This document shows positions 12,001 to 24,000 of a DNA stretch of 35,026 bases, one piece after another. Numbering within the stretch: position 1 is the first letter of the stretch; every line of letters begins with the position of its first letter. The position numbers are program-made. The stretch is from a virus (taxonomy: Duplodnaviria; Heunggongvirae; Uroviricota; Caudoviricetes). The stretch lies in the IMG/VR virus record IMGVR_UViG_2698536657_000017, positions 1 through 35,026 of that record. One strand, 5' to 3'.

Positions 12001-15000
12001 TGAGGGAGTTCGCTTCAACAGCCAGCAAAATTATAACGGGCGCATGTTCCAGTCTCTTTATGCCCTGGCGACCGACGACAAGGGAGAACTGTGTTACCTG
12101 CATCAGACATTGCTTGATGGAGCTAAAAAAGCAGACATTGGTATCAGCGCCAGAAGGCTCAAATCTTTACAGGACGATAACTATCTGGACCATGCCCGGT
12201 CAGTTGCTATCAGGATGTTTCCGGTAGCCAGTACACTGGGTATAGCTGAAGGTATCGAAACCGCGTTGTCCGCACATCAGATTTACAAAGTAAATACCTG
12301 GGCAACCATTAACAGTGGTTTTATGAAAAAGTTCCGCGTACCGGCGGGAGTCACCCATCTGATTATTTTTGCCGATCGCGATGAATACAGTGCTACCGGA
12401 ATGGCTGCGGCCTGTGAATGCGCACATGCAAATCTCCAGGCCCGAAATGACATTCAGCGGGTAAGTGTCCGGTGGCCTGATCATGATGATTTCAACAATA
12501 TGCTCATGAACGGCGATCAGGTTCGGGAACTGGTTTTTTACAGAAAAAAGGCGGTTGCGTGATGCGTACGGACAATCAGGTACATAAAGCTTTATTCACT
12601 ATCCCGACGGCAGCGTACAGCGCCGTTCCGGCAAATATCAAACCTCTGCCAGAACAAAGGAGGATCACCGGACATAAACAGACAGATGCTTATCTCTGGA
12701 TTCTGGAGGTTATTCACCTGAACGAGGCCGTACATCTGGACGCAGCCGAAGCAGCACTGGAGAAACTCAAAATAACGCCGGAAGAAGCGAGTGAACGGTA
12801 TGGACGTTATTTGCAGGAGATTAATGTTGATCCTTTCCAGATTGCTTTCGCAACCATAGGCATAGATAACCCGGCGCAGGCGATCAGGAATGCCCGTGAG
12901 AATATCAAAAAAGCCGCATCAGTCAGGGCCACATTTGGCAGCTATGAGGCAGCACTCGATGATGTGGAGGCTGAGCGGATAATTCGCACCTCCCCGAAAT
13001 TTATCGACGATTACTACTGGGGCTGGACTGCGGCAGAGAAAAAAGCCGGAAGTATTGACGGTGTTCGCTCAAATGAAATTGATGATCAGCGTCGTGCATA
13101 TGTTGATGGCTATCGTGATGTACTGCCAGAGCCTCATACATTGTCAGACGTTGTTCGTGAGTTTATTTACTGGGACTGGCTTTATGAGATGCGCCAGACA
13201 GCGGGGAGAGAAACAGGGGACAAATACGGTTTCACAGGTGAACATCATGAGTCAGTATATGATCGGCAGTTCTGGCTCGAAAATTTGCTGGGAAAAATAA
13301 AGCCTGTGACGCGTGATGAAGCGGTTGAAGTGTGTCGCTGGTTTCTGGCAAGCGGAAAAGATGAGTACATGGAAGACAATGGTTCAGCGGTCATTCTCAA
13401 TCTGGTTGGGGAGTGTGAGCAATGAAGCCGGAGATATCCAGTAGACATTTTCCCCCTGAGCATTCAAATCAGAAAAAGTATGGTTACAGCGGAGTACAGA
13501 ATAATGCGTGATATCCAACAGGTTCTGTCCCGATGGGGTGCATGGGTGGTAAATAATCATGAGAGTGTGGCATGGTCCGGCGTCGCTGCCGGATTTAAGG
13601 GAGTGATCCCATCAAAGGTTAAATCACGGCCTCAGTGTACCGATGATGATGCGCTGATTATCAGCAATTGCATGGCGCAACTGAACGTCAACAACAGCGA
13701 TTTGCATGATTTTCTGTATGATTATTATGTGTTCGGGATGACGCTTATGGGACTGGGCCGTAAGCATGAGCGCTCTGATTGCTGGGCCGGGCGGGTACTG
13801 CAAAAAGCTGAAGGTGTTATTGAGGGGATGTTGATTATGCAGGGAATAAAACTGGAAATGGACAGATACGTTGAGCGTGAACGATCAGGGGCACAGGTCA
13901 GTCAGTTTTCCGGACATACGGGAAATTGAAAGCGCGGGGTTTTACTGTAGAATGACTGCGGGTGCTTGAGGGTGTCTGCCTCGGGCATGCTGCCGTAAGG
14001 CAGACGGAGAAAAGCCCCAGTTAACATTACGCGTCCTGCAAGACGCTTAACATTAATCTGAGGCCAATTTCATGCTGAACACATGTAGGTTAGCCTCTTA
14101 CGTGCCGAAAGGCAAGGAGAAGCAGGCTATGAAGCAGCAAAAGGCGATGTTAATCGCCCTGATCGTCATCTGTTTAACCGTCATTCTGACGGTACTGGTA
14201 GCGAGGAAAGACCTCTGCGATGTACGAATCCGAACCGGCCAGACGGAGGTCGCTGTCTTCGTAGACTACGAATCTGAGAAGTAAGAGACCTGGCGGGGGA
14301 GTAATCTCCCGCCCCCTCTGATGTGTCAGGCATCCTCAACGCACCCGTACTTTAGTTGTCATATGCTCCGCAAAATGCAGGTTGTCGTTGCAACCCGTGC
14401 GGTAATTTTTTGTGTGCGAGTGCTCAAAAAACGTTGATTTTCATAAAAGGACGATTTTATGCTGCCAGACCAGCGACCAGCGACCAGCGACCGTAAATCA
14501 AGAAAGTCTGTAAAATCTGTTGAACCAGACATTGCCGACCGGGCTAACAACTGGCTCAAATCTTATGGACTTGATTACAAACTGGAGCAGGCACCACTTA
14601 ACAACGAGATCGATAACGCACTGGATGCTTATTTTTCGAAAAATGGCGGCACAGGCGGTAATCGTCCCGACGTAAAACTCCTTGTTCAGGACAAATACGG
14701 CAAGCAGTATCCCGTTCTCATCGAGTATAAAGGCTACAAGGACAGGCTTATCAGACTTGGCAGCAACGGTATTATTGAGAACAAAGATGCCAGAAAAGAA
14801 TGGAATTTTAAAAATATTAATGGATACGCGGTGAATGGCGCAGTCCATTATGCCAACGCACTTCTTCAGTTCACCAATTACCCTGATATTATTGCTATTG
14901 GTATGACCGGCTGGCGCGATGATGGTACAGGCGAACTGCATCATGAAATCGGCGTGTGGTACGTATCAAAGAATAATTTAGGAGCCGGGCAGAAGGTTGG

Positions 15001-21000: not shown

Positions 21001-24000
21001 CAGAAACCTACCCTGTACTTATTGATACGGTGGAAGTTAAAGCAAACAAAGCTGGAGCAGCCGCATAATTGCTAAAAAAAGCCGCCAGCGGCAGGAATGG
21101 AAGCTGGCGGAGGTAATCCCAATGGAGAATGTAAAGAAAAGATGCTTTCGTACATTGGTTTTTTAAATGAAAACAGTTCTCATTGTCAACCATAACGGTA
21201 AGAAATTATGATATTTATTCATCAGGTGATGCTGTACTTCTGTACGGCGGTCTGTGTGCTGTATCTTCTTTCGGGTGGGTACAGGGCAGTGCGCGATTTC
21301 TGGCGCAGGCAGATTGATAAAAGGGCCGCTGAGAAAATCAGCGCCAGTCAGTCAGCCGGAAGCAAACCCGAAGAGCCCGTTACTCCTTAACAACCCCTTT
21401 CAGCGAGAAAATCCCATGTCAGAAATTACATCCCTGGTCACTGCAGAGGCAGTGAAGGAAGTCCTGCGCTCTGAAGAAGTCCGGAGCGCACTGAAACAGA
21501 AACTTCGCCAGAATCTTGAGGCGCGTCTTGATGCAGAAGTTGATGCCATTCTGGATGAGCTGCTTGGTGTACAGGCAGAGCCACCGACTGAAGCGGGAGA
21601 TACCACCGCAGAGAGCGGTGAAGTTCAGCCTGAATCACCGGTCGCCGATGCGACTGAACCTCAACCCGAATCGGTCATGATGCTGTAACGAGGAGTCAGG
21701 GCCATCAGTAAACGGCTGCTGGCCTTTTTCATGTTGTGAGCTTCCGGATTGCGGGAGACGGGGTATGTACCAGATGGAAAAAATCACAACAGGTGTGTCA
21801 TACACCACGTCAGCGGTGGGAACGGGCTACTGGTTCCTGCAGTTGCTGGACAGGGTTTCCCCGTCTCAGTGGGCGGCAATAGGCGTGCTGGGGAGTCTGC
21901 TGTTTGGGCTGCTGACATATCTGACGAACCTGTATTTCAAGATTAAAGAAGACCGGCGTAAGGCGGCGCGGGGAGAGTAAGCTGATGAGCAGGAAATTCC
22001 GCTATGGTTTATCAGCGGTCGTTCTGGCGCTGATTGCTGCAGGTGCTTCTGCGCCTGAAATCCTCGACCAGTTTCTTGACGAAAAAGAAGGTAACCACAC
22101 CACGGCATACCGTGATGGTGCGGGTATCTGGACCATCTGCCGTGGTGCCACCCAGGTGGATGGTAAGCCTGTCGTCCCCGGCATGAAGTTGTCGAAGGAA
22201 AAATGCGACCAGGTTAACGCCATTGAACGTGATAAGGTGCTGGCATGGGTGGCGAAAAACATCAGAGTGCCACTGACCGAACCTCAGAAAGCGGGGATCG
22301 CGTCATTCTGTCCTTACAACATTGGCCCCGGTAAGTGTTTCCCGTCGACGTTTTATAAACGAATTAATGCAGGCGATCGCAGGGGAGCGTGTGAAGCGAT
22401 TCGCTGGTGGATTAAGGACGGTGGCAGAGACTGCCGTATCCGCTCAAATAATTGCTACGGTCAGGTATCCCGTCGCGACCAGGAGAGTGCGCTGGCATGT
22501 TGGGGTATCGACAGGTAGCAGAATATTTTGCTGAAAAATAACGTTGGTCAACGCGGACGGATAACACGAAATCCTGCGAACTGGCAAAACCTAAGTGAAT
22601 AAAAGTAAAAACCCCGTTTTTGGCAGCAAGCGGGGTTTTGTGTTTATGGCAGTAAGCTATGGGTGGCTGCCTTGATTGATTTTAGCAAACTGATTAGGGA
22701 GTTGCGACTCATGATTAGTCAATTACCAAACTGGAAGTTTTTGCTGGTCTGGAGCATCCCTTTTTTATGGGGGGTATCCCAGTTAATTGTGGCAATTAAG
22801 GGGTAGCTATGTCAGACAAACTCATAACGCTGGCGAAGATCCTCTGTGTAATCGTCGGCATTTCATTTTCACTAATGCTGGTTGCTATTTTTCTTTTCCT
22901 GCCCTGGATGATGTTGTCTTCGTCGGGGATGCTGGGGTAACAGTGACTGATGACATCAGCAGAGCGCTGGCTTTGCTATTAAGTGGGTGGCGGTTGGTAT
23001 CGCTGTGTCTCCGATACTGTATGGGCTGGCAAAACTGGTCATTGCGCTGAAATCGTGAACTTTATTTAAACAGATGAGTAATGAAATTGCTGTACTGGTC
23101 CGGGCAATTCGCTGGTGGTGATATGAACCGTATTCTGTATGTGGTGATTATTGTACTGCTGGTGGCCTGTGGTGCGCTTAGTCTGGGGCTGAATCATTAC
23201 CGCGATAACGCCATCACCTACAAAGCGCAGCGCGATAAAAAAGCCAGAGAGCTGGAGCTAGCAAACGCAACCATTACTGACATGCAGCAGCGCCAGCGTG
23301 ATGTTGCTGCGCTTGATGCCAGATACTCAAGGGAATTAGCCGATGCGAGAGCTGAAAATGAAACTCTGCGCGCTGATGTTGCCGCTGGTCGTAAGCGCCT
23401 GCGGATCAACGCCACCTGCTCCGGTACCGTGCGTGAAGCCCCCACCACCTCCGGCGTGGATAATGCAACCGCCCCCCGACTGGCAGACACAGTTGAACGG
23501 GATTATTTCACTCTCAGAGAGCGGTTGATGCTGATGCAGAAGCAGCTGGAAGGGGCACAGGACTATATCCGCACTCAGTGCTGAACTAAGTTTTGCTGAT
23601 GCGCCGTATCGTCGCCGTATTCCCGCATAAACAGAGACCGCAGCCACCTTATCTGCGTGAGTGTGCGGGGGTAATCAAAAACGATGCACACCGGGTTTTC
23701 TCATTTTTCACGAGATGGGAGCGATTTCCCGCGAAGCCGCCTGTCCGGTGCGGTGGTGGAAGAAACCGGATAAAACAACCTCATTGTACAAATATCGATC
23801 AAGTATGGCGCTGCTGTGTGAATTCTGAAAAATCACAGCGGTCATTATGCGTCAGTTTTTAACAGAGGACGTCAGAAAGTGACATGGCAAAGCTGGACTG
23901 GAAAAAGCTGGAGCAGGCATTCCGACGCGAACATGCCGAAACGGGAATAACATTACTGGACTGGTGCCGGAAGAAAAAGATTAATTACAACACCGCCAGA

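Follow-up and report, generated by a model that had tools for sequence, protein, structure and literature searches.

In Shiga toxin (Stx)-converting phages (933W, Sakai Sp5 and Sp15, the Stx1c and Stx2b phages), the late-control region is arranged in the order Q, PR', StxS/tR', tRNA genes where present, stxAB, an STnc100/EcOnc42-like small RNA (sRNA), nanS-p and the lysis genes S, R and Rz. Stx-negative, Stx-phage-like prophages of Escherichia coli share this architecture and have other cargo, or none, at the stx position. In the Stx1 and Stx2a phages of Sakai, the late promoter PR' and the terminator tR' were mapped 258 nt apart, and RNase E cuts between the GU and the AUU of a GUAUU motif at +173 to yield the 74-nt StxS (Sy et al., PMC7547250). 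Here we describe the equivalent region of IMG/VR virus record IMGVR_UViG_2698536657_000017, a Caudoviricetes sequence analyzed over positions 1 to 35,026 (35,026 nt in all, referred to below as the window). The segment between 13930 and 21068 is most probably the late-control region of a lambdoid prophage of the Stx-phage lineage without toxin genes, with two independent cargo slots split by a conserved control block. Like Stx-converting phages, the window has a Q gene of this family, a PR'-StxS-tR' block, STnc100, nanS-p and a P21-type lysis cassette. Unlike them, it is devoid of stxAB and tRNAs, its stx slot being filled by an antisense DUF7661 gene, and it has 3.85 kb of hok and restriction-modification (RM) sequence between Q and PR'. 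No stx open reading frame (ORF) was found in the window and ARAGORN detected no tRNA gene anywhere in it. With neither stxA nor stxB between tR' and nanS-p, the prophage is Stx-phage-like and not Stx-converting. Stx-like prophages that have other cargo in place of stx form a well-known class, of which this one is an ordinary representative; compared to the other stx-negative members, the DUF7661 occupant is rare and directed against the late transcript.

Megablast searches matched the window to 387 phage records, mostly Stx-converting phages; over the interval 17780-21100 the best phage match was phiSTEC1589-Stx1c, with 96.9% identity. Among complete E. coli genomes, the top three full-length matches, each 96-97% identical, were the Stx2b prophage of E. 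coli 04-00955 (L001), the Stx1c prophage of 2013C-3033 (L002) and the stx-negative prophage of CFIAFB20190167 (L003). Nucleotide identity of the backbone to the first two ranges from 94 to 99%. The stretch encompassing nanS-p and the lysis genes is 94.5-98% identical to Stx prophages, the match to L001 being broken at 22526-23185. On its left side the window shares about 98% identity with the Stx1c and Stx2b prophages, and on its right side 98.4% with RM-less prophages carrying DUF7661. Homologous exchange via conserved flanks would explain this mosaic pattern. Slot content would most likely be exchanged by recombination between related prophages, with Q, StxS/tR' and STnc100/nanS-p acting as homology arms. 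The initial annotation had recognized a Stx-phage-like late backbone and a hotspot of variable cargo. Both points are borne out, the former by the identities to phiSTEC1589-Stx1c and to the Stx1c/Stx2b prophages and the latter by slot contents that differ among relatives; the elements that it listed (Q, hok, the RM genes, structured RNAs, nanS-p, holin, endolysin and Rz/Rz1) were all recovered where it had placed them, with Pfam and Rfam scores far above chance. It did not include the minus-strand DUF7661 gene (18080-18298), the PR'/StxS/tR' block (17788-18081) or two simple-sequence repeats in the RM genes, all of which are described below.

The boundary between the two slots was located by aligning the window with Stx phages. 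Positions 17785-18080 align, column by column, with sequence that starts inside the final 20 nt of the Q933-type Q gene of L004, L005 (a Stx1c phage) and L006 (a 933W-like phage). The segment begins with a putative late promoter PR' of the 933W/Sakai type (TTTACA-16-TATCAT, plus strand, 17788..17815), which matches the consensus at 10 of 12 positions. The predicted StxS leader, that is, the PR'-to-tR' transcript, spans about 260 nt (17822..18081, plus strand), contains the RNase E motif GUAUU at approximately +171 and ends at tR', a hairpin (18051-18074) followed by a run of seven T residues that was classified as a strong terminator by the terminator scan. Since the length and the position of the motif match the published values of 258 nt and +173, the interval 17788-18081 was identified as PR'-StxS-tR'. 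The control block ends at tR' and the point where stx-slot contents are swapped is therefore the first base after this terminator. A second terminator-like hairpin (17845-17866, GAACCCGC..GCGGGTTT followed by a T run) lies some 25-50 nt past the PR' start, inside the 5' portion of StxS_L, and is kept in all aligned relatives. HnrS (PMC13502914) was checked and found to be unrelated.

Pairwise BLAST breakpoints and the annotations of L001-L003 delimit the actual stx slot to 18082..18423, beginning after tR' and ending at the first STnc100. In pairwise BLAST comparisons, the 343 bp at 18081-18423 are replaced by positions 7978-9473 in L002 (stx1cAB), by positions 7775-9571 in L001 (a methylase remnant, three tRNAs and stx2bAB) and by approximately 17 nt in L003, essentially an empty site. 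The only sequence that the window has at the stx position is this 343-bp DUF7661 segment, and the true replacement of stx is a small antisense DUF7661 gene. The gene (18080..18298, minus strand) encodes 72 amino acids from a GTG codon preceded by an AGAGG ribosome-binding site, and its product matches positions 1-69 of the 70-position Pfam profile PF24697 (E 1.2e-28; 99.5 bits against a cut-off of 27). The gene is oriented convergently with late transcription, and transcripts from PR' would run antisense to it. Of 5,426 complete E. coli genomes, only 2 have a 356-bp segment with this gene, each time at this site; more than 800 contigs encode the identical protein. The gene lies between Q/PR' and nanS-p on the opposite strand in all eight contexts examined, and one genome (L149, GCA_053799855.1, strain JNEC-KY176) has the full architecture of the window.

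Among named hits, the DUF7661 family is confined to Enterobacterales, with 67-90% identity across genera. Outside E. coli it is a chromosomal, stand-alone gene, which in Klebsiella grimontii overlaps the 3' end of a GNAT acetyltransferase gene (L151-L154, 3429-4219). The idea, suggested by the Klebsiella overlap, that DUF7661 and the GNAT protein form a toxin-antitoxin or other partnership was dropped on finding unrelated neighbors in Rahnella, Dickeya and Raoultella: aroG/gpmA in Rahnella and a PAAR region in Dickeya (L159-L164 cover the non-Klebsiella genera). Such differences in neighborhood between genera leave no basis for inferring a partner gene. The AlphaFold2 model (pLDDT 94.5) folds into a sheet of four strands plus a short fifth with one helix; it had no significant structural neighbor, and PADLOC returned no match for the protein. 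Taken together, DUF7661 is most likely a moron expressed in the lysogen; a specific function could be proposed only with low confidence.

The other slot is 13930-17787, between Q and PR', and carries a hok/sok locus and a BcgI-like Type IIB RM module. The Q gene preceding it (13504..13929, plus strand, with a possible start at 13480; 141 amino acids) belongs to Pfam family PF06530 (E 2.5e-45). Its product is 64% identical to the Q933-type Q of L004 by BLASTP and 64-68% identical to Q of Stx phages; the homologues in L001-L003 are annotated as a 426-nt "antiterminator Q family protein". A sigma-70-like promoter sequence (TTGAAA-16-TAGAAT, plus strand, 13926..13953; 10/12 consensus match, function inferred) overlaps the Q stop codon. 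The hok/sok/mok locus follows at 13960..14330 (plus strand). Its leader (13960-14134) matches Rfam RF01794 with 108 bits against a gathering score of 59. The hok gene (14129-14284), which was also mapped from the coding sequence at 3730-3885 of L002, matches Pfam HOK_GEF (PF01848, E 3e-20), the mok ORF (14072-14284) overlaps it and a 3' stem-loop lies at about 14293-14320. Judged by its parts, a Hok/Gef ORF, mok and a leader with antisense region, this would be a complete type I toxin-antitoxin locus. The Hok/Gef peptide, overlapping mok and conserved leader plus antisense region are features of the hok/sok loci of plasmid R1, the E. coli chromosome and prophage Sp5; unlike those, the copy in the window sits immediately after Q. 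The hokW-sokW locus of Sp5 was reported to aid Sp5 release (PMC8621323), a role that cannot be assumed for the present copy.

Closest relatives carry the hok/RM insert together with stx. The block Q-hok-methylase-S is common to L001, L002 and L003. L001 contains, in order, Q, hok, the RM genes, the methylase remnant, three tRNAs, stx2bAB, STnc100 and nanS-p; L002 contains Q, hok, the RM genes, stx1cAB, two copies of STnc100 and nanS-p. In both, stx (and in L001 the tRNAs and methylase remnant) is placed between the S gene and STnc100/nanS-p. A further locus, L157, has hok, RM, tRNAs and stx2 of the stx2c/d type. The same Q-hok-RM-PR' arrangement is present in PhiR12_3, an ECOR13 phage whose genome was deposited as complete, which suggests that the arrangement is compatible with a functional phage.

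A survey of both slots was carried out on 110 IMG/VR loci using a 30-mer inside tR' as marker. Downstream of it, 36 loci have stx1, 12 have tRNAs and stx2, 16 have tRNAs only, 16 have tRNAs and other cargo and four are empty sites, with STnc100 at +103; the other 26 end too early to be scored. DUF7661 was found downstream of tR' in none of the 110. Upstream of PR', Q abuts the promoter in 72 loci and hok/RM intervenes in eight, and these eight span empty, tRNA-only, other-cargo and stx2 states of the stx slot. Closed genomes with hok/RM add tRNAs only (E2855 and O111:H8 strains), stx2c/d with iraM (OkiPb01714) and TerB with DUF3927 (E110019; L158 is a closed-genome example of this slot content). 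These varied combinations indicate that the two slots vary independently. In two IMG/VR loci (L027 and L036) the distance from Q down to the tR' marker is 1,412 nt, as opposed to 673 nt, corresponding to a different insert of about 740 bp in the slot next to Q.

The structured RNAs downstream of the stx slot belong to the backbone. Two copies of STnc100 (Rfam RF02076, gathering threshold 47 bits) are present on the plus strand, at 18465..18670 (153 bits, with its own terminator at 18640-18659) and 18732..18945 (200 bits). In L001 and L002, STnc100 is immediately downstream of stxB; it is the normal 3' flank of stx. A search of 13900-19200 for AsxR, AgvB and other sRNAs with Rfam at a permissive threshold returned only STnc100, sok and a chance match to a Trp leader. 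L001 has the anti-sRNA AsxR (RF02703) between STnc100 and nanS-p. The window allele of this interval (18946-19157) differs, is shared with L002 and L004, has no Rfam match and contains a minus-strand terminator-like hairpin at 18954-18971; it may specify an uncharacterized antisense sRNA.

The larger part of the insert between Q and PR' is the RM module. Its first gene (14459..16543, plus strand) encodes an alpha subunit of 694 amino acids in which a PD-(D/E)xK nuclease is fused to a gamma-class N6-adenine methyltransferase (PADLOC and Pfam N6_Mtase); the match to PADLOC REase_MTase_IIG extends end to end (E 7e-234). The PD-ExK motif "RPDVKLL...YPVLIEYKG" is kept in 11 of 12 aligned homologues, including those from Neisseria and Providencia, which are 72-73% identical, and the translation contains the motif I-like FATGSAG and NPPY. 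The homologue in the PhiR12_3 record is annotated as "BcgI alpha chain-like"; a search of PDB sequences with the alpha subunit gave no match. The specificity (beta, or S) subunit is split into an N-terminal half containing the first target recognition domain (TRD1) and the central helix (16603..17139, plus strand; Pfam Methylase_S, PADLOC Specificity_II, frame analysis) and a C-terminal half containing TRD2 (17202..17723, plus strand; PADLOC Specificity_II, profile positions 181-332 of 341). Both halves match Specificity_II, but as two ORFs separated by the frame of an octanucleotide repeat; the C-terminal half, for which Pfam gave no match, is open in the frame "ISYELTPQEYNAIELL..MWG". Intact versions in relatives have 361-416 amino acids.

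On this composition the module is best described as a BcgI-like Type IIB system made of two genes, alpha and beta, and would be expected, as a member of that class, to cleave on both sides of a bipartite site. As in BcgI-type systems, the nuclease and methyltransferase are fused and HsdR is missing; the separate HsdS-like subunit with two TRDs is represented in the window by two half-genes. Unlike those systems, the module is prophage-borne between Q and PR' and has repeats with a unit of 7 nt in alpha and of 8 nt in beta, and its beta gene is split here. A Type I assignment, implied by the RefSeq label "HsdM family", was rejected: the score against TIGR00497 (hsdM, NCBIfam) is 35.9 bits with a cut-off of 242.75, and the module has no HsdR. 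The only helicase in the ORF list (9934-11592) belongs to the replication module, where it adjoins ORF 11594-12562, whose homologues in related prophages are annotated as toprim-domain (primase-type) proteins. The G+C content of the RM module (41-44%) is lower than that of its flanks. An estimated 0.5-2% of complete E. coli genomes carry the module, a rough figure based on 27 genomes at no less than 80% coverage and 98 records at 95-99%. The S alleles are mosaic: window positions 16497-17018 (TRD1) match L002 (98%) and not L001, and positions 17067-17780 (TRD2) match L001 (96%) and not L002. Such reshuffling of TRDs between alleles suggests selection on specificity. In public annotations, the fused enzyme is mislabeled "HsdM family" and its start is put at a TTG codon without a ribosome-binding site.

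Phase-variable RM systems controlled by simple-sequence repeats occur in Neisseria, Haemophilus, Helicobacter and Campylobacter, and in NgoAV a repeat tract truncates HsdS. Tandem Repeats Finder (TRF) identified two such tracts in the RM module. One is a perfect array of the heptanucleotide GACCAGC (14468..14492, plus strand, 3.6 units), which begins 9 nt after an ATG preceded by a good Shine-Dalgarno (SD) sequence at the start of alpha. Related loci have from 2.6 to about 102 units (L001 4070-4185, L002 4069-4472, L007 4965-5545 and also L165-L170). Four O111:H8 genomes have 31, 56, 58 and 83 units with no mismatch over 3.9 kb of flanking sequence; in three commensal "G" strains, equally free of mismatches over 3.9 kb of flanks, the numbers are 83, 99 and about 93. 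The array of 99 units (G8) is in frame and that of 83 units (G6/7) out of frame. The array reads (DQRPATS)n in every frame. The peptide downstream of it is conserved between the two allele types, and distant homologues begin just there; this conservation places the array inside the coding sequence and makes the upstream SD-ATG the likely true start. The SD-ATG is in frame with the rest of alpha (ON) in about 6 of 25 loci, one of them being the window. Public annotations place spurious minus-strand ORFs over the array ("YXWGXW repeat-containing protein", "hypothetical protein" or "Drug resistance transporter EmrB/QacA"; L002 4042-4482, L007 4938-5555, L156 1659-2339, L158 1538-2032, L166 1238-1855).

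The second tract, with 7.9 units of the octanucleotide GCGGACTC (17075..17137, plus strand), lies at the center of the S gene. Relatives have 4 to 26 units (for example L126 2701-2772, L128 7626-7673 and L119 7668-7882). S is full length at 6 units (L128) and 9 units (L126) and split into two half-genes at 4, 7, 8, 10, 16 and 26 units, exactly as predicted by frame arithmetic. In the window, a +1 frame change within the array would fuse the two halves. The state of the window is therefore alpha ON and S split. Next to the octamer, at about 17040-17074 ("IEELEAAHIEELEAY"), an in-frame 24-nt repeat encodes IEELEAAH in the S central helix; it is present in two copies here and in 3-4 copies in some relatives (L119 ~7560-7660, L001 6714-6780, L002 7001-7052). 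By analogy with EcoR124I/II, the number of IEELEAAH copies could alter the length of the spacer in the recognition site.

Both tracts thus lie within coding sequences and have units of a length not divisible by three. Strains that are otherwise identical differ in the number of units, and alleles in frame are found alongside alleles out of frame. Features of this kind mark a contingency locus at the sequence level, and phase variation is likely. Changes in (GACCAGC)n would switch the nuclease-methylase on and off, and changes in (GCGGACTC)n would toggle S between full length and half size. The module resembles the phase-variable RM systems of Neisseria and the other genera in its non-triplet repeats within coding sequences, variable copy number, coexisting in-frame and out-of-frame alleles and a repeat-determined length of S. 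It is unlike them in its E. coli host, its prophage location, its Type IIB class, a heptamer array of up to about 100 units and the presence of two independent repeats. A published description of a repeat-controlled BcgI-like RM module in Stx prophages was not found in the full-text literature searched.

We put at about an even chance that the BcgI-like system is a true phase-variable, specificity-switching defense and epigenetic module of E. coli Stx-type prophages. The competing explanation is that the module is a decaying remnant, whose repeats are neutral unstable DNA or, in part, assembly noise. This would agree with the SD-ATG being out of frame in some three of every four loci examined, with the split S gene of the window and of most octamer-carrying alleles, with the frameshifts in hok of some relatives and with the frequent breaks of draft contigs at the array. 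In every scorable locus, however, the alpha frame is intact for about 683 codons past the array, and the nuclease and methylase motifs of alpha are conserved among homologues; the arrays are perfect, differ by whole units in closed genomes and are found in both ON and OFF frames. Full-length S alleles occur at exactly the predicted unit numbers, and the reshuffled TRDs suggest selection on specificity. We therefore regard decay as doubtful. The RM system may nevertheless be inactive in this particular genome, where S is split.

Two other explanations bear on how the region is expressed. By the reading favored here, hok and the RM genes, lying upstream of PR', would probably be expressed in the lysogen from promoters of their own, or by read-through from the early operon, and not by Q antitermination; their likely roles would be prophage maintenance and defense against foreign DNA. 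The predicted start of the 13926-13953 site coincides with the 5' end of the hok leader, as expected of the hok mRNA promoter, and only the plus-strand genes past tR' (STnc100, nanS-p and the lysis genes) would be placed for Q-dependent expression. The same site could in principle be the late promoter of a diverged Q, making hok and RM the first late genes and PR' at 17788 an orphan remnant that gives rise only to StxS. Q proteins normally act on a promoter that immediately follows the Q gene itself, the present Q shares only 64% identity with Q933, the site scores 10/12 and every locus with this Q variant has hok directly after Q. Set against this are the coincidence with the 5' end of the Rfam hok/sok leader, the absence of any detected similarity between the site and the PR' region, the lack of an obvious benefit of a Hok toxin and a restriction enzyme in the late operon and the fact that PR'-StxS is intact in every member; on balance we find an orphan PR' improbable. 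Even less credible is that the whole Q-to-nanS-p interval forms one hotspot in which hok, the RM genes and the RNAs took the place of tRNAs and stxAB and are all transcribed, upon induction, in a Q-antiterminated late operon. The lack of stx and tRNAs, the common orientation of all genes but DUF7661 with Q and nanS-p and the 10/12 promoter-like site right after Q can be read this way; synteny contradicts it, since hok/RM co-occur with stx1c, stx2b and stx2c/d in the closest relatives and are also found with empty, tRNA-only and other-cargo slots, since PR'-StxS-tR' lies downstream of hok/RM, and since STnc100 is next to stx in Stx phages.

The single-hotspot view is close to that of the initial annotation, for which cargo had replaced stx. 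This holds insofar as stx and the tRNAs are gone; hok, the RM genes and the structured RNAs are not their stand-ins. L001, L002 and L157 carry Q-hok-RM in addition to stx, the insert lies upstream of PR', and in Stx phages STnc100 follows stxB and the StxS/tR' leader precedes stx; the synteny comparison, which had been proposed as the check, places the same content at another position in related prophages, an outcome named beforehand as refuting the replacement view. Two independent slots had been merged and the normal flanks of stx, StxS/tR' and STnc100, taken for replacement cargo. Nor does the anatomy support a coupling of the cargo to prophage induction through Q: hok/RM precede PR', and DUF7661 runs against the direction of late transcription. 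Some points do weigh against the two-slot reading as we present it. The 64% identity to Q933 makes the action of this Q on a 933W-type PR' an assumption, and the second promoter-like site overlapping the Q stop could in principle be the late promoter. Ahead of DUF7661 the promoter-like feature consists of a perfect -35 only, with no good -10. The expression state of hok, RM and DUF7661, like promoter use and Q specificity, is inferred from sequence only.

The remaining genes of the region follow the Stx-phage pattern. The nanS-p gene (19158..21068, plus strand) encodes a sialate O-acetylesterase of 636 amino acids with Pfam domains DUF1737, SASA and DUF6645, and agrees in length and in position with the "SASA family carbohydrate esterase" coding sequence of the Stx1c and Stx2b prophages. 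The lysis cassette comprises a P21-type holin (21765..21980; PF04971), an endolysin of the phage lysozyme family (21985..22518; PF00959) and Rz (23081..23584; PF03245) with Rz1 embedded at 23343-23528, all on the plus strand. The gene after Rz (23884-24690) encodes a repetitive "IDHEIDHKTDHEIDHD" stretch, which in relatives corresponds to a 12-nt tandem repeat of about 4.4 copies (L001 14282-14334, L002 15077-15129) and may be another length-variable tract. Upstream of Q, the replication module (9934-13425) specifies a DEAD/DEAH helicase, a toprim-domain protein and an unknown 288-residue protein, and is not of the lambda O/P type. Q directly follows the gene for the 288-residue protein in the window; NinG and NinH precede Q in other carriers of hok/RM.

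Variable cargo in Stx-type prophages was already known; the most interesting by-product of the analysis is the repeat-controlled BcgI-like RM module. For Stx-producing E. coli (STEC), the data define two insertion points in the Q-to-stx region, with PR'-StxS-tR' as the boundary between them. In some Stx1c, Stx2b and Stx2c prophages, a hok/RM insert of at least 3.9 kb between Q and PR' changes the distance from Q to stx, and assays or models assuming that the late promoter abuts Q would be misled by it. Annotation errors also follow from the module: the alpha subunit is entered as "HsdM family" in spite of being a fused RM enzyme, and the heptamer array gives rise to spurious minus-strand ORFs. 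Should repeat-driven phase variation prove true, this would be, within the literature searched, an apparently undescribed example of RM control by repeats in E. coli, carried on toxin-type phages, with consequences for gene flow, for epigenetic heterogeneity and for superinfection by phages. A clonal population of STEC or of commensals would then comprise cells in different methylome and restriction states, and the module that generates them would travel with stx1c, stx2b and stx2c.

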